Part shown: positions 11,859 to 54,911 of the stretch, piece after piece
Position numbering within the stretch: position 1 is the first letter of the stretch
Layout: every line of letters starts with the position of its first letter
From: Anaerolineales bacterium
GTDB taxonomy: Bacteria > Chloroflexota > Anaerolineae > Anaerolineales > UBA4823
Direction of reading: 5' to 3'
NCBI GenBank assembly: GCA_034434515.1
Contig: DAOTZA010000084.1
Location: 7,261-71,260, forward strand
DNA: 64,000 nt
The notes under the pieces: model-generated
Seen by the model: the letters and a program-made list of their open reading frames with translations, nothing else
Database searches by the model: none
Told to the model about the DNA's origin: nothing
Position numbers and translations under genes: made by a program

Positions 11859-12758
11859 TTATTTATAGACAACTTGCGGAGTGTCTCTCAACCACCATCG
11901 CTCTGTGGAAAAGATTAACAATGCCAGCCAGATCATCGCAAAACCGATTAATCGTTCGGACGTGAACGGTTCGTGGAACAACAAGACTCCCAGTAAAAAT
12001 TGACAGGTCGGGGCGATATATTGCAGCAATCCCATTGTCCATAAAGGCACCAGGCGTGCTGCGCTGCCAAACATCAATAACGGAATGACGGTAATCACCC
12101 CACTCAGAAGCACCAAAACGTTAACCCATAGCGTTCCATGCCCAAAGCCGCCTGCGCCATTCATCTCTTGGAGAATCAAATAAAGCACAGCCGGAAGAAA
12201 AAGCACCATCGTTTCCAGTGTCAAACCATATAACGATGAGAGCGGAGCAACTTTCTTCACCAAACCATAAAATCCGAAGGAAAATGCTAACGTCAATGCA
12301 ATCCATGGCAAAGTATGGTATTGAATGGTCAGGTAGGCAACTCCAAAAGCTGCAATCCCAACCGGCAACCACTGCGACCATCGCAAGCGCTCGCGTAAAA
12401 AAAGAACTCCCAGCAAGACGTTTACCAAAGGATTAATAAAGTACCCCAAGCTAGCTTCCAGCACAAAACCAGCATTCACTGCCCACACATAGGTGCCCCA
12501 ATTGAGTGCCAGGAGACTGCCAGCTACAGCGTAAATCACCAGGTTTTTTTTGTTCCGCAGATGTTTACCAAACGCTTGCCATTCTTTCCGCTGAGCCAGA
12601 ATGAAGGTCAACAAAAGAAAAGACCACACAAAGCGATGAGCCAGTACTTGAGGTGAGGGTATCGAAACCAGGGCTTTAAAGTACAAAGGGAAGAAGCCCC
12701 AGATCAAATAGGCGCCAAATCCGAGTAACAAACCTTTGCGATTTATTCCTTCAACCAT
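11859..12758 (-). CDS. rarD: EamA/RarD-family transporter
   Basis: 299 aa with 10 predicted TM helices. The N-terminus GLLLGFGAYLIWGFFPLYFK is typical of RarD. Confidence 0.75.
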   Translation of the reverse strand: MVEGINRKGLLLGFGAYLIWGFFPLYFKALVSIPSPQVLAHRFVWSFLLLTFILAQRKEWQAFGKHLRNKKNLVIYAVAGSLLALNWGTYVWAVNAGFVLEASLGYFINPLVNVLLGVLFLRERLRWSQWLPVGIAAFGVAYLTIQYHTLPWIALTLAFSFGFYGLVKKVAPLSSLYGLTLETMVLFLPAVLYLILQEMNGAGGFGHGTLWVNVLVLLSGVITVIPLLMFGSAARLVPLWTMGLLQYIAPTCQFLLGVLLFHEPFTSERLIGFAMIWLALLIFSTERWWLRDTPQVVYK

Positions 12759-13028
12759 CCTTGTTCATCCGTTCTTTTCAGATCAAGCCGCGCAAAGAAA
12801 ACGCAACATTTCTCAACACAGCATATAGGGTTGCATTTTTACACAGCTTTGCTGAGGTTATCTGCAGGGGCTATGGTAGCCCTGCCGGAATGAGAATCGT
12901 TTATCCCCCTTCCTTGAAAGGAACCTTTCTCTTTAGTTGGAGCTGCTCCTATCAAATCCACATCGACAACCTCTTTGTAGGCAGAATTATACTCCAAAAA
13001 ATGTGACAATCATCTGTTCTAAATAATC

Positions 13029-13057
13029 TTGACATTCTATACCCTATTCCATACAAT
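13029..13057 (+). promoter_or_regulatory. near-consensus sigma70-type promoter of the cysE leader
   Basis: TTGACA (13029-13034), 17-nt spacer, TACAAT (13052-13057). It lies ~270 nt upstream of the cysE ATG. Confidence 0.6.
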
Positions 13058-13074
13058 ATTGAGTAAGGATTCCC

Positions 13075-13125
13075 ATGAACAGGATTTCGTCTCACCTCAC
13101 TTGCTCCTGTAAACGGCGGGGATAA
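13075..13125 (+). CDS. candidate 16-aa leader peptide with two Cys codons (MNRISSHLTCSCKRRG)
   Basis: ATG 13075 with AAGGA 5 nt upstream. UGC is at 13102-13104 and UGU at 13108-13110. The stop TAA (13123-13125) sits in the loop of the first GC hairpin. The ORF is too short for the track and I read it by hand. Confidence 0.45.
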   Translation: MNRISSHLTCSCKRRG

Positions 13126-13188
13126 TCACCGCCGTCAAATCCTCACGCGTCCTCTCACCTCAAAATTGACGGCGGTTAAGTCCCCGCC
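13113..13188 (+). promoter_or_regulatory. alternative RNA helices in the cysE leader (attenuator-like)
   Basis: Four segments: A ACGGCGGGG 13113-13121, B CCGCCGTCAA 13129-13138, C TTGACGGCGG 13166-13175, D CCCCGCC 13182-13188. A:B (7 bp) and C:D (5 bp) are local hairpins. Alternatively B:C (10 bp) nests inside A:D (7 bp). The tract 13126-13165 has 18 C and 4 G in 40 nt. Confidence 0.45.
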
Positions 13189-13330
13189 CGAAACCCACAA
13201 TGTACAGTACGTGTTTCCTGTCAAACACGCTAGTCCACCTTTACGGTTGTGATTCATTCCTTTCGATTGGGAATAAAACAAATACTGCAATAACTGGCAC
13301 AAGCATTGAAGATACCTGAAAGAGAAGAAA

Positions 13331-14032
13331 ATGTTTAACTCAATTCGCGATGATATTCAATCCGTCTTTGAACGCGATCCGGCAGCCCGCAGTTTTTGGG
13401 AAGTCATCTTTTGCTATCCGGGCATCCATGCTATCTGGGGACATCGGATAGCCCATTGGCTCTGGACTCACCATCTTAAGTTTCTTGCCAGATGGTTTTC
13501 TCAACTCATGCGTGGCCTAACGGGTATCGAGATCCATCCCGGCGCGAAGATTGGTAAACGCTTTTTTATTGACCATGGCATGGGAGTTGTCATCGGCGAG
13601 ACTGCCGAAATTGGTGACAATGTAACCCTTTATCACGGAGTAACCTTGGGTGGAACAAGTCTCAGTAAAGGAAAACGACATCCAACCTTAGGCAACAATG
13701 TCGTTGTTGGTGCAGGAGCAAAAGTTTTAGGGGCAATCACGATTGGCGATAATAGCCGCATTGGGGCGAATGCTGTTGTCGTCAAGGATGTGCCGCCTAA
13801 CTCTGTTGTCGTTGGTGTACCAGGACAGATTCTTCTTCGCAGTCAACCTCGCCAAAACGGAAAGCCAGATTTAGACCACGGGCGACTGCCTGATGCAATC
13901 GGCGAAACGCTTGCTCAACTGGTTGAGCATGTCAAGCGGTTAGAAGAGAGAATCGACGGACACCTGCCCAAAGAACCCGACTTACACACTCCCGTTCAGG
14001 GCGTATGGCAGGGGGAAGATTTCTCGATATGA
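13331..14032 (+). CDS. cysE: serine O-acetyltransferase
   Basis: 233 aa. The N-terminal SATase helix region ([30 protein letters not shown]) is followed by hexapeptide repeats ([38 protein letters not shown]). Confidence 0.9.
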
Positions 14033-14796: not shown

Positions 14797-17571
14797 TTAC
14801 TTGGCGTTATCATCGGTGTGATGGGCGATCATCACGCGGTCTCCCCCTTCGTGCTTTGCAAGATAAGCAGCGGCATCACTGACCTGAATCAACCGTTCCA
14901 CCGTTGAACCCAGGTCTGGATAAGCAGCCACGCCGATTGAAAGGGTAATTGGCCCGATTGATTTTCCTTCATATTCGTATGAGGTCTTTTTAACCGCCTC
15001 GCGCAAACTTTCGGCTCTTTGCCAGACATCCGATAGAGAGGCTTCGGGTAAGATTACCATGAACTCATCCCCACCATAGCGACAGGCGACATCCTCCCCG
15101 CGAAAGATTTTCTTCATCAAACTTCCAATTTGGCGTAGAACCACATCGCCGGCGTCATGCCCATAACGATCGTTGATCGGTTTCATCTGGTCAATGTCAC
15201 ACATGATCAAACCAACAGAATACTTGTGACGCGCTGCCCGGCGAATCTCGCGGTCTAAAGTCTCCTCCATATAGCGGCGGTTGAACAAACCGGTCAGCGG
15301 GTCGCGGATCGCCTGGCTGCGTAATTTATCCCTAAGGTTCAAATTCGATAACGCCGGAGCAACATGCTCAGCAATCGACACCCCAATTTTGCTCAGCTCT
15401 TCCAGGTGATCATTACCCGGTTCATTCATCCCTGAATTACGAATGTGCAATAATCCGATCGTTTCACCCTGGGCGATCAAAGGCACACAAATGTACCGAT
15501 CGGGAAACGGCATTCCTAGGTGATCACAGAAAGGACCTTCTGAATTGCGAACAAGATGCACTTTACCGCGGCGGATGCCCCAACACTCATTTAATACCAA
15601 CTCATTCTCACCGCTAGGTTCATTCCCCCATTGAGCCACCTTTTCTGCAACATCTTGGACTGTCCGCAATAAATACAGCGCCCCGACACTATCTGGCATT
15701 AAAATTTGCGCGTATCGAGCTATAATTGGGTAGGCTTCATCAGCCGTCCGACAGGACTGTAACAAATCTCCCATCTCCGCCAGGAGCTTATTGCGCTTGT
15801 TGTGCATTTCGAGCTGAGAAATTTTTTCGCTCACGTGCCTCATTCGTTCTTCCAGTTCATCTGCACTCCATTTCCGATCCAGAGCATTGACGACAATATC
15901 GGCCATTGCCTTAACCGCCCCGATCTGATCGAAAATCGAATCACTCGCACCCTCATTGCCTTCTATTCCCAGGTATCCAACCACTGTACGACGTAAAACC
16001 ATCGGCACAGCAACGAGAAAATTGATATTTTGGGCATCAAAATAGACTTGTAATGGCGCGGGCATATCTCCTGCTCGGCAAAGAGCAACAATTTCTTGTC
16101 GATTAATTTTTTCCAATAGCCAGGAGAGGGCTGGGTCAAAAGGCTCTGGTAACTCAAAGGGCGGCAACAATCGATCAGATCCGCACCAACGAACCTGAGC
16201 CTGTAATCCACCACCCTCTCGTTTGAAAAGGTACACATAACTTTTTTCGGCCCCCACATATTCAGCAAAGCTTCCGATCGCTTTTTCTAATAAAGTGTCT
16301 ATTTGACGAGGGGCAGCATTTATTAGCCGAATAGCCAGAGCAGTCAGGAAATGATCAATACGCTGTCGCAATGTAGTTTGTTCTAAATCTCTGCGTATTC
16401 GGGCAAAGCGTTGCTCTATCTCATGCCTGGTATGCAAATCTTTCAATGCCAATCTCGCATTTTCAGCCACCTCAACCAAGAACTCTTTTCGCCGTTCAAC
16501 GATCTCTTCTTCCGAGTGGGTATAAAAAAGGGTGATGATGCCTCGAATCTGATTATCGAGGTCAATAGGTACACCAACCGCCCATTGGAATAACTCACCC
16601 TCCTCTCCTAGAAGCACATCTTTCCAGTTTGCAGGATCCTCACTGATTTGTATTTGACCGCTGCGGGTAATTTTTCCAAATAGACCTCCGGCCGAACGAA
16701 CAGCGGCGCCGGGACGAAAGACCTCCGGTTTGCGAGTAGCTTCAACCACGAATGATTCCCCATCATTTGAGCTTCCCATTAAAGCTACATAGGGCGTACT
16801 TCCAATCTCTTCCATCAACTCCAGCAGAACCTCCCATAACTCTGTCTCACCTTTACAGTTAAAGAGCCTCTTTCCCGACTTTACCAAGAAATCCTTCAAA
16901 TGGAGATCGTCCTCTAATTTATGGGTTCTCTCGATGAGCTCGGTGAGATCATGTCCATTAACCAGTATTCCGAGTGTTACTCCTAATTTATCAATTAAAG
17001 GTGTAAACGTCAGTTCAAACCAGCGTTTACCCTTAACCGTCATTAATTCGATCTGACGATTTACAGGTTGTTTGCTCGCAATTGCCCTTTTTTCGTCTTC
17101 CTCCAGGGTTTTAGCAATTTTCGGTGGGAAGAAATCCACATCCGATCTTCCGATGAGTAAATCGATTGTTTTTCCAAGTGTTTTAGCAAAGGCTACGTTG
17201 ACTTTTCGATAGCTCAAGCCAGGATCTTTAAATACGACAAGATCCGGTAATTGTTCCAGGAGCAGTTGGTATTCTTCTTTCTCGGAGCGGAGTTGGTCAT
17301 ACCGGGTGAAGGCATCCTTGATAGGAGGTAACAGGAACCATAACAACCCAAAACAGGTCAAAGAACTTGCCGCAGCCAGGAAAGCCGAGATCAGATGACC
17401 TTGCGAAGGTTGGAATAATTCATACCCAAACCAAGCAATAGTCAGAACAGGCAAAATGAAAAGACCGGTCCAAATCCCGCGTCGTTGCGTTTGCTGCAAA
17501 AACCGAAAAAATAAATAAAATACTCCCACCTGACCAAGGAGTGCCAGGGTCCAGCCAATTATCTCTCCCAT
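14797..17571 (-). CDS. membrane sensor diguanylate cyclase (TM-PAS-GAF-GAF-GGDEF)
   Basis: 924 aa. The C-terminal GGDEF domain has RYGGDEF and an RxxD I-site (RGED, 5 residues upstream). N-terminal TM helices and GAF-like repeats are present. Confidence 0.8.
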   Translation of the reverse strand: MGEIIGWTLALLGQVGVFYLFFRFLQQTQRRGIWTGLFILPVLTIAWFGYELFQPSQGHLISAFLAAASSLTCFGLLWFLLPPIKDAFTRYDQLRSEKEEYQLLLEQLPDLVVFKDPGLSYRKVNVAFAKTLGKTIDLLIGRSDVDFFPPKIAKTLEEDEKRAIASKQPVNRQIELMTVKGKRWFELTFTPLIDKLGVTLGILVNGHDLTELIERTHKLEDDLHLKDFLVKSGKRLFNCKGETELWEVLLELMEEIGSTPYVALMGSSNDGESFVVEATRKPEVFRPGAAVRSAGGLFGKITRSGQIQISEDPANWKDVLLGEEGELFQWAVGVPIDLDNQIRGIITLFYTHSEEEIVERRKEFLVEVAENARLALKDLHTRHEIEQRFARIRRDLEQTTLRQRIDHFLTALAIRLINAAPRQIDTLLEKAIGSFAEYVGAEKSYVYLFKREGGGLQAQVRWCGSDRLLPPFELPEPFDPALSWLLEKINRQEIVALCRAGDMPAPLQVYFDAQNINFLVAVPMVLRRTVVGYLGIEGNEGASDSIFDQIGAVKAMADIVVNALDRKWSADELEERMRHVSEKISQLEMHNKRNKLLAEMGDLLQSCRTADEAYPIIARYAQILMPDSVGALYLLRTVQDVAEKVAQWGNEPSGENELVLNECWGIRRGKVHLVRNSEGPFCDHLGMPFPDRYICVPLIAQGETIGLLHIRNSGMNEPGNDHLEELSKIGVSIAEHVAPALSNLNLRDKLRSQAIRDPLTGLFNRRYMEETLDREIRRAARHKYSVGLIMCDIDQMKPINDRYGHDAGDVVLRQIGSLMKKIFRGEDVACRYGGDEFMVILPEASLSDVWQRAESLREAVKKTSYEYEGKSIGPITLSIGVAAYPDLGSTVERLIQVSDAAAYLAKHEGGDRVMIAHHTDDNAK

Positions 17572-54838: not shown

Positions 54839-54911
54839 CGCCCCAGGCGGGATTCGAACCCACAACCGTTAGCTTAGAAGGCTACTGCTCTGTCCATTGA
54901 GCTACTGGGGC
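54839..54911 (-). tRNA. tRNA-Arg (anticodon UCU)
   Basis: Hand-folded cloverleaf. The acceptor stem is GCCCCAG/CTGGGGC, the D arm GCTC/GAGC, the anticodon loop CTTCTAA and the T arm GTGGG-TTCGAAT-CCCGC. The discriminator is G and no CCA is encoded. There is a G27-A43 mismatch at the top of the anticodon stem. Confidence 0.85.

Follow-up and report, generated by a model that had tools for sequence, protein, structure and literature searches.

Classical attenuators with a translated leader peptide are represented by trpL, hisL, leuL, thrL, ilvL and pheL in Proteobacteria and by the trp and ilvB leaders in Actinobacteria. In another type, represented by tnaC of E. coli and mgtL of Salmonella, Rho-dependent termination is under the control of the leader peptide. 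In Firmicutes, cysE and cysK are regulated by the Cys T-box and the S-box (S-adenosylmethionine, SAM), in which tRNA or ligand is bound directly by the 5' leader RNA and no open reading frame (ORF) is translated. Leaders with Cys codons have been predicted in Mycobacterium, P. acnes and B. longum, all lacking terminators, and Rho was suggested as the effector (Seliverstov et al. 2005, PMC1262725). For M. smegmatis, experiments showed that stalling at the Cys codons unmasks a downstream ribosome-binding site (Canestrari et al., 10.1101/834739), and the mycobacterial 'Cys ribulon' consists of leaderless polycysteine short ORFs with consecutive Cys codons (10.1101/834739). Here we analysed the leader of cysE in a 64,000-nucleotide stretch of an Anaerolineales genome (contig DAOTZA010000084.1, positions 7,261 to 71,260 of the forward strand), referred to below as the window.

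Comparison with related loci indicates, at a probability that we set at about 0.75, that this region is a functional leader sensing cysteine through cysteinyl-tRNA and the translating ribosome, and that it belongs to a large family in Anaerolineae (Chloroflexota). Any particular output mechanism for the window copy is doubtful. The cysteine-sensing leader-peptide attenuator is a kind already known, and what is new is the phylum and the large family, of which the window holds an unusual copy without terminator. No description of a Cys leader in Chloroflexi or Anaerolineae was found in full-text searches of open-access papers and bioRxiv, and the family is apparently undescribed. The elements of the window leader and of the gene behind it are as follows.

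13029-13057, plus strand: sigma-70-type promoter, with TTGACA at 13029-13034, a 17-nt spacer and TACAAT at 13052-13057.
13065-13069, plus strand: Shine-Dalgarno-like AAGGA, 5 nt on the 5' side of the leader ATG.
13075-13125, plus strand: leader ORF of 16 codons and UAA, with ATG at 13075 and TAA at 13123-13125, encoding the peptide MNRISSHLTCSCKRRG.
13102-13110, plus strand: putative regulatory codons UGC (13102-13104), UCC and UGU (13108-13110), the C-x-C of the family.
13115-13123, plus strand: 5' arm of helix P1 (segment A), overlapping the codons for R-R-G and the first base of the stop codon.
13128-13138, plus strand: 5' arm of helix P2 (segment B), starting 3 nt past the stop codon.
13139-13165, plus strand: apical loop of 27 nt, C-rich and G-poor, as judged from composition and fold.
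13166-13176, plus strand: 3' arm of helix P2 (segment C) in the minimum-free-energy fold, covarying with B.
13180-13188, plus strand: 3' arm of helix P1 (segment D) in the minimum-free-energy fold, followed by CCGAAACCCA.
13189-13315, plus strand: spacer from the hairpin to the cysE ribosome-binding site, with a local hairpin (13210-13216 paired with 13223-13229) and no terminator.
13316-14032, plus strand: ribosome-binding region and gene of cysE (233 aa; Hexapep and SATase_N domains), the putative regulated gene.

The promoter, the AAGGA sequence, the 16-codon ORF, its two Cys codons and segments A to D had been proposed in a preliminary description of this DNA, and all were present at the positions proposed. 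The promoter agrees with the consensus at 11 of 12 positions and was the top promoter-like site between 12000 and 14500; transcription is predicted to start near 13064, leaving a 5' untranslated region (UTR) of 11 nt. The Cys codons stand seven and five codons ahead of the stop. The homologues of the window cysE are named serine O-acetyltransferase by their sources.

For both the whole leader and the isolated segment, the minimum-free-energy fold was the nested structure A:D/B:C, the long helix of the preliminary description, with the stop codon at the internal loop between P1 and P2. The energy of this hairpin was -37.2 kcal/mol against -18.9 +/- 2.6 for 200 shuffled sequences, none of which was as good (z = -7.0). 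The competing fold is A:B, in which segment A is paired with B instead. As to the local hairpins described previously, the 5-bp C:D hairpin does exist in the window, though the family as a whole does not conserve it. On the plus strand between promoter and cysE (13058-13330), scanning detected neither a hairpin followed by a T-run nor any other terminator-like site, in agreement with what had been stated on the lack of a U-tract. On the minus strand a terminator-like site was noticed at 13188-13171, with no convergent gene present. Reading of the hairpin as a repeat, a mobile element or a minus-strand terminator was rejected, since more than 100 loci show the element in association with cysteine genes. 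By Rfam 15, no match was obtained in 12700-13400 at E < 0.9, permissive thresholds included, and no riboswitch, T-box or SAM class was found at gathering score in the window cysE leader or in 18 related loci. The window leader would resemble the T-box and S-box leaders of Firmicutes in regulating the same genes through 5' leader RNA according to cysteine or sulfur status, and it differs in its putatively translated ORF.

For comparison we first collected 80 cysE loci, 19 from Chloroflexota and 61 from other phyla, and the leader element was found by manual count and relaxed scan in 14 of the former and in none of the latter. The best genomic relatives of CysE were metagenome-assembled Anaerolineae/Chloroflexota with identity of about 69% or less. 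A blastn search of the 572-nt intergenic region against the 80 loci gave no match at E < 0.2, and homologous leaders were located by inspection of the cysK upstream regions and translation of short ORFs. In the Anaerolineae relatives, cysE directly follows cysK, and a similar short ORF precedes cysK; examples of the peptides are MLICICLRRGS, MRLNCMCLRRGPL, MFNNCLCQRRGMD, MLNCMCPGRGR and MNKYCMCSMRGST. In each example a near-consensus promoter lies on the 5' side, and GGCGGGG...CCGCC...GGCGG...CCCCGC and then T-runs lie on the 3' side.

Metagenome contigs were then scanned with the reverse complement of TGCNNNTGTN4GGCGGGG-N4-16-CCGCC-N30-60-CCCCGC, a pattern that the window leader also matches exactly. 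At least 120 metagenome loci were obtained. Among these listed matches, about 113 carry an ORF ending in CxCx[RGW]RG, some with GTG or TTG starts, and seven GC-rich ones look spurious. Recurrence in well over 100 independent loci is far beyond chance. The first downstream gene is CysK-like in 79 of the listed loci, in two classes with about 78% and about 40% identity to CysK of the subclade to which the window belongs. A two-domain rhodanese of 279 aa, a sulfite reductase and a DUF4395 protein also recur, and the downstream genes that could be identified across the family are all for cysteine or sulfur assimilation. With respect to individual loci, the rhodanese (on many contigs), a sulfite reductase of 754 aa and the DUF4395 membrane protein were seen behind the same leader (L119, L112, L141, L151 and others; L113; L143). 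The presence of one leader before several types of gene gives a hint of a cysteine regulon spread over several loci, and of a function of the DUF4395 protein related to sulfur.

In anatomy, too, the window leader conforms to this family: the C-x-C codons are followed after 5 nt by GCGGGG, the stop codon precedes B, B:C is nested inside A:D, and D is CCCCGC. Its homology to the family can be traced through the relatives L081, L082, L084 and L085. In nearly all members, B follows the stop codon within about 5 nt. Promoters equivalent to that of the window precede the short ORFs of the relatives, with 12 of 12 consensus matches in L009 and L106. At the Shine-Dalgarno position, TGGAGA or GGAG is present in many relatives, and others look leaderless. 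In L090, L091, L094, L109, L126 and other metagenome loci, TATAAT ends 6-7 nt before the leader ATG and a Shine-Dalgarno sequence is missing; translation of these ORFs may start on leaderless mRNAs like those of mycobacteria. A regular-expression scan of the window for a second copy of the leader gave only a chance antisense match inside an ORF.

Whether the short ORF is read as codons was judged with 68 representatives of less than 80% mutual identity. The first stop codon falls inside the 12-nt internal-loop window in 63 of the 68 for the Cys frame, compared with 2 and 5 for the other frames, and an upstream ATG with open frame is present in 61 for the Cys frame, compared with 2 and 7. All three stop codons are employed at this same structural position (TAA 41, TAG 16, TGA 11). 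The N-terminal part of the ORF ranges from about 3 to more than 20 codons and is variable in sequence, yet it is always in frame. The middle codon of C-x-C is for M, L, S, I, T, A or F and varies at all three positions between fixed Cys codons; Cys itself was found in 0 of 68.

The distance from the first Cys codon to GCGGGG is exactly 14 nt in all 69 sequences considered, about 18 of which were collected by gene neighbourhood and not by the search pattern. The ribosome footprint extends about 12-15 nt on the 3' side of the P-site codon. The fixed spacing therefore places helix A within the footprint of a ribosome holding the second Cys codon in its A site. A functional micro-peptide was judged unlikely: C-x-C is the sole peptide-specific feature, the N-terminal part varies freely in both length and sequence, and the conservation of RRG is explained by helix A.

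The above pattern bears also on the possibility of a translation-independent RNA element, in which UGCNNNUGU...GGCGGGG...CCCCGC would serve to bind a metabolite or protein, with the short ORF present only incidentally. Such an element would look conserved at the nucleotide level, and indeed the Cys codons are nearly always UGC and then UGU, and GGCGGGG/CCCCGC is almost invariant; the hairpin is also well formed and covarying, as described below. Against it stand the start and stop signature confined to the Cys frame, the use of all three stop codons at one position, the in-frame variation of the N-terminal part, the free middle codon between fixed Cys codons, and the lack of an Rfam family match. 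On this balance we consider an RNA element acting without translation very improbable.

The stretch from A to D can be folded into the same three-part nested hairpin in all 68 representatives: P1 with GCGGGG:CCCCGC, a short extension formed from the last sense codons, an internal loop carrying the stop codon, and P2, which is B:C. When the raw leaders were aligned by MAFFT and analysed by RNAalifold, D was misaligned by 2 nt in half of the rows and only A:B was predicted, the loop being variable. This alignment was replaced by an anchor-based one, in which variable parts were masked by N and which MAFFT left unchanged, and pairs were counted in fixed register. In this register 73.9% of the cells were paired, a value lowered by bulges at the far end of the helix, compared with 39-45% when the partners were slid by 1 to 3 columns. 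The covariation score for A:D/B:C was 0.18 against 0.105 +/- 0.009 for shuffles, none of 500 shuffles reaching it. Changes on both sides were observed at 13 pairs, for example at the three pairs following CCGCC. A, the CCGCC core and D are fixed by the search pattern and thus uninformative in this test, and the shuffle tests are inflated by the relatedness of the sequences. An alignment-free test between the 28 nt after A and the 30 nt before D gave -21.4 kcal/mol for cognate and -16.3 kcal/mol for non-cognate combinations, with 0 of 2000 permutations as good. Covariation of A:B cannot be judged because this pairing is nearly invariant. Altogether, conservation of the ORF with its Cys codons, kept in the closest relatives and across the family, and covariation of the helices, the two points on which the earlier proposal of a cysteinyl-tRNA-sensing leader could have failed, strongly support that proposal.

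In the main family, the segments for a terminator were also detected. One or two T-runs follow D in all 62 main-family representatives with enough downstream sequence, and the arm preceding each T-run pairs with C and/or with the loop. The first T-run lies about 27-43 nt past D, its preceding arm being complementary to C (pairing C:4), so that segment C is also the 5' arm of a terminator. The second lies about 50-90 nt past D, and its preceding arm X' is complementary to a conserved loop segment X (RGYCAAC). Segment X is situated in the loop of the B:C hairpin, for instance at 1936-1945 of L003, and its partner, a GTTGRYY arm with its own T-run, is nested outside the C:4 terminator. Terminator-like sites were detected by an independent scanner in L009 and L106.

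As judged from these sequences, the main family is a case of classical four-segment attenuation. The likeness to the classical attenuators extends to the short promoter-near ORF with codons for the end product, the stop between segments 1 and 2, the mutually exclusive helices (A:B, the B:C antiterminator, and the C:4 terminator with U-run) and the downstream genes, which make the amino acid sensed. The main family is different in sensing cysteine, in having two codons spaced as C-x-C, in the extra helix A:D that extends the antiterminator, in belonging to another phylum, and in the second nested pair X:X' with its own U-run. The window copy agrees with the classical attenuators in an ORF with its own start signal, Cys codons near the end, exclusive helices and cysE downstream; what it lacks is the intrinsic terminator carried by all 62 of its main-family relatives.

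With the mycobacterial and actinobacterial Cys leaders, the Anaerolineae family shares the predicted sensing of Cys-tRNA by Cys codons of a short ORF in control of cysteine and sulfur genes, and the use of one device at several loci, including genes of cysK type and rhodanese type; the window copy additionally shares with the actinobacterial leaders the lack of an obvious terminator. The family differs from the mycobacterial leaders in RNA structure and in the canonical terminators of most members. In the window, moreover, the leader ORF is predicted not to be leaderless, the -10 hexamer ending 17 nt before the ATG with AAGGA between, and its Cys codons are not consecutive but arranged as C-S-C. 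The peptide motifs look unlike by description, not by direct comparison, and the two groups of leaders are probably of independent origin.

Closer relatives of the window CysE, with 80-96% identity, were found by protein search. L081 (CysE 96% identical) is arranged like the window. L082 (88%) carries a stand-alone cysE with the same promoter and leader and the same upstream gene of the EamA family (82% identical). In L084, L085, L207 and L209-L211 (about 80-82%), the order is leader-cysK-cysE-ubiD; in L208 the contig end is too close to cysK to show a leader. The leader peptides of this subclade are of one ORF type (SHLTCSCxRRG), represented by MNTISSHLTCSCKRRG, MTQRTCSHLTCSCIRRG, MKRICSHLTCSCTRRGL, MIPHRVSHLTCSCIRRGL and MISHHVSHLTCSCFRRGL, and the ORF, the C-x-C and the in-frame stop are kept in L081, L082, L084, L085, L207 and L209-L211. 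In three further contigs, no additional cysE-linked leader with enough upstream sequence was found. The sequence TCTCACCTCA is present twice in the window, at 13090-13099 inside the leader ORF and at 13151-13160 inside the hairpin loop; the copy in the loop is kept in neither L081 nor L082, and the repetition is probably due to chance.

The gene order in these relatives indicates that the element was ancestrally the leader of a cysK-cysE operon and that the window lineage has lost cysK, so that the leader now stands directly in front of cysE. The comparison thus goes beyond the preliminary description in suggesting an operon leader whose members mostly carry intrinsic terminators, the window copy being an exception. 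Searches detected no remnant of cysK in 12700-13400 and no cysK gene anywhere in the window. In L084, a relative with 81% identity, cysK was called as two ORFs of 126 and 214 aa (1447-2486). A frameshift, a pseudogene or an assembly error might explain this split, which may represent an intermediate stage of cysK loss. In L023, a Pelolinea genome (2663-3000), an ORF of 57 codons stands between the leader, whose terminator is intact, and cysE. The start and end of this ORF resemble the N- and C-termini of CysK, and the locus looks like an independent internal deletion of cysK.

The sequence behind D differs markedly within the subclade. In the window, L081, L082, L084 and L085, no arm able to pair with the stretch from B to D was found behind D, and these are the only five representatives lacking one; the loop in this subclade also has no segment X. 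In the members that keep cysK, D is directly followed by a U-rich tract, UAUUUUUCUU, UUCUUUCAUC or UUUGACCUUU, and 6-8 of the 10 nt after D are T, compared with a mean of 2.7 in the main family and 0 in the window and L081, in the latter of which D is followed by CAAAAACCCA. L082 has a separate small hairpin farther downstream, followed by AUUUUUAG. It seems that in the cysK-keeping members the terminator role has passed to the long A:D/B:C hairpin as a whole, which a Cys-stalled ribosome covering A would block.

These differences raise the possibility that the window sensor is vestigial: the deletion of cysK would have removed the terminator, and the leader would persist without regulating, cysE being read through from the strong promoter. 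A relic of this sort agrees with the failure to find a terminator or another output element in the window, with the absence of T after D, and with the poorly conserved spacer behind it. However, useless elements would be expected to decay, and the opposite was observed between the window and L082. Identity was 97% for the promoter, 94% for the C-terminal part of the ORF together with helix A, 80% from C to D, 77% for B, 56% for the loop and 56% for the spacer after D, which is not alignable, compared with 35% at third codon positions of cysE. This contrast between leader and third positions indicates that the window sensor is under selection. One substitution in the conserved ORF stretch is synonymous (CTC to CTG for Leu, in L082). 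The window and L081 agree fully (100%) in the 36-nt ORF core and in the promoter, and at 70% in the fast-evolving loop. The B:C extension is AA:UU in the window and UAUUC:GAAUA in L082, different in sequence and still paired. In the trio of the window, L081 and L082, the base after D is C, giving P1 an additional G-C pair, and the cysE-linked, EamA-flanked arrangement of the window is also shared by L082. By these comparisons the window copy is under purifying selection, unlike a useless relic, and we hold a vestigial sensor to be improbable.

For a functional sensor we infer the following scheme of how the window leader is translated, where the ribosome stalls, in which direction cysE is regulated and how the output arises. 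Transcription would start from the promoter at 13029-13057, and a ribosome would translate the 16-codon ORF. When charged tRNA-Cys is scarce, this ribosome would stall at UGC/UGU (13102-13110); its footprint would cover segment A, 8 nt after the second Cys codon, and B:C alone could form. When charged tRNA-Cys is plentiful, the ribosome would reach UAA at 13123-13125, in the internal loop between A and B, would cover B briefly and would then leave. In most members of the family, stalling at Cys would free B for pairing with C as the antiterminator, and completion of the ORF would free C for the downstream arm, giving an intrinsic terminator ahead of cysK-cysE in the manner of trp. In the window the sensor would still report the supply of Cys-tRNA, and starvation would raise the expression of cysE; repression would then depend on the hairpin of -37 kcal/mol acting in a way other than a canonical intrinsic terminator. 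Candidates for such an output are termination by a Rho-type factor on the C-rich untranslated leader, a pause or a cleavage that depends on the hairpin, and weak non-canonical termination. The probable effector is the hairpin itself or a factor responding to base composition and not to a motif, given that no particular sequence behind D is kept.

Rho or a similar factor is one realisation of the Cys-sensing leader and not an alternative to the sensor. After release of the ribosome, the C-rich leader would load Rho, and a stalled ribosome together with B:C would restrict the loading, as for tnaC and mgtL, with which the window shares a leader ORF, the lack of an intrinsic terminator and a C-rich untranslated stretch past the stop. 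Within the tract 13126-13165, 18 of 40 nt are C and 4 are G, exactly as counted before, and equally extreme 40-nt windows number 265 of 63960 on the same strand; C exceeds G throughout 13084-13200 (25-31 C compared with 12-18 G per 78 nt). Conservation of no specific downstream sequence would also fit an effector that needs composition and not a motif, and the same idea was put forward for the terminator-less Cys leaders of Actinobacteria (PMC1262725). On the other hand, the C-rich stretch is the loop of B:C and, different from tnaC and mgtL, is predicted to be single-stranded in the stalled and unstalled folds alike, so that no difference in exposure is apparent. Its length is only about 27-40 nt, and the loops of the subclade relatives are merely pyrimidine-rich. 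An output through Rho is accordingly a possible but doubtful one.

Translational attenuation of the mycobacterial type, in which the cysE ribosome-binding site would be hidden in a structure and set free by a ribosome stalling on the leader, has experimental precedent for the same logic with Cys codons (10.1101/834739). A weak anti-Shine-Dalgarno-like sequence, UCCUUUC at 13260-13266, is a candidate for pairing with GAAAG in the cysE ribosome-binding site, but just 5 bp would be formed, and about 190 nt without any conserved link separate the sensor from the ribosome-binding site. In ribosome-masked folding, the mean unpaired probability of 13312-13333 was 0.53-0.64 in the free, Cys-stalled and stop-codon states, a thermodynamic prediction alone, in which no switch appears; equal accessibility in all states is also what a vestigial sensor would give. 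We consider translational attenuation improbable for the window copy. In the same connection, a 7-bp pairing between 13070-13076 and 13275-13281 was seen in one constrained fold and is not conserved in L081; it was treated as chance.

For the family as a whole, we tentatively propose, at less than even odds, that one conserved Cys-tRNA sensor is wired to different outputs within one class: C:4 and X:X' terminators with an A:D/B:C antiterminator in the main family, the hairpin with a U-tract in the cysK-keeping subclade, and in the window a selected output independent of a U-tract, be it Rho, RNase, a pause or a roadblock.

Several points weigh against a functional Cys-sensing leader in the window. 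Neither a terminator nor a conserved partner downstream of D was detected, nor a change in the predicted accessibility of the ribosome-binding site, and so no route from the sensor to cysE was found. The loci obtained by the pattern were preselected for A, B, D and the Cys codons, and these features are uninformative in that set. Each leader contains merely two Cys codons, which are not adjacent, and the conserved RRG and the fixed choice of UGC...UGU could in part reflect a constraint on RNA and not on codons. Finally, the minimum-free-energy folds of many relatives favour the terminator under any ribosome mask, so that the attenuation model relies on the order of folding during transcription.

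Among the neighbouring genes, the one divergent from the cysE leader encodes a transporter of the EamA/RarD family (Pfam EamA; 11859-12758, minus strand), and this pairing is kept in L081 and L082. EamA of E. coli exports cysteine and O-acetylserine, and the EamA-cysE pairing may be functional. The 270 nt between the EamA gene and the cysE promoter (12759-13028) are partly conserved in L082 (71% identical, compared with 35% at third codon positions of cysE) and include a conserved hairpin at about 12864-12885, GCAGGGGCTA...TAGCCCTGC; the minus-strand fold of 12759-13028 gave z = -2.45, with no Rfam match. This region may represent the 5' UTR of the EamA gene, or else proteins may bind there. 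Downstream of cysE, an ORF of 924 aa lies on the minus strand (14797-17571); PAS, GAF and GGDEF domains in the corresponding ORF of L081 point to a diguanylate cyclase. The sole Rfam match in the window was a tRNA gene at 54839-54911 on the minus strand (68.6 bits).

Cysteine has so far been without a classical leader-peptide transcription attenuator, the described cases being actinobacterial and either terminator-less or translational (PMC1262725; 10.1101/834739). If true, the proposal of one sensor with several outputs would provide the first classical cysteine-specific transcription attenuator and a natural series of exchange of the attenuator expression platform. The family offers a compact and diverse set for the study of the minimal number of regulatory codons and of the evolution of output platforms. 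Its sequence signature helps in the annotation of leaders and of ORFs of 10-25 codons in metagenomes, which are overlooked by gene callers, and the leader predicts cysteine-related roles for co-regulated unknowns such as DUF4395. In the window, cysE is very probably regulated by cysteine even though neither a protein regulator nor a terminator is visible. The Anaerolineae, which are poorly studied and mostly uncultured, appear to control cysK, cysE, cysK-like, rhodanese and sulfite reductase genes by one shared ribosome-sensing leader, which, if true, would constitute a regulon without a transcription factor.

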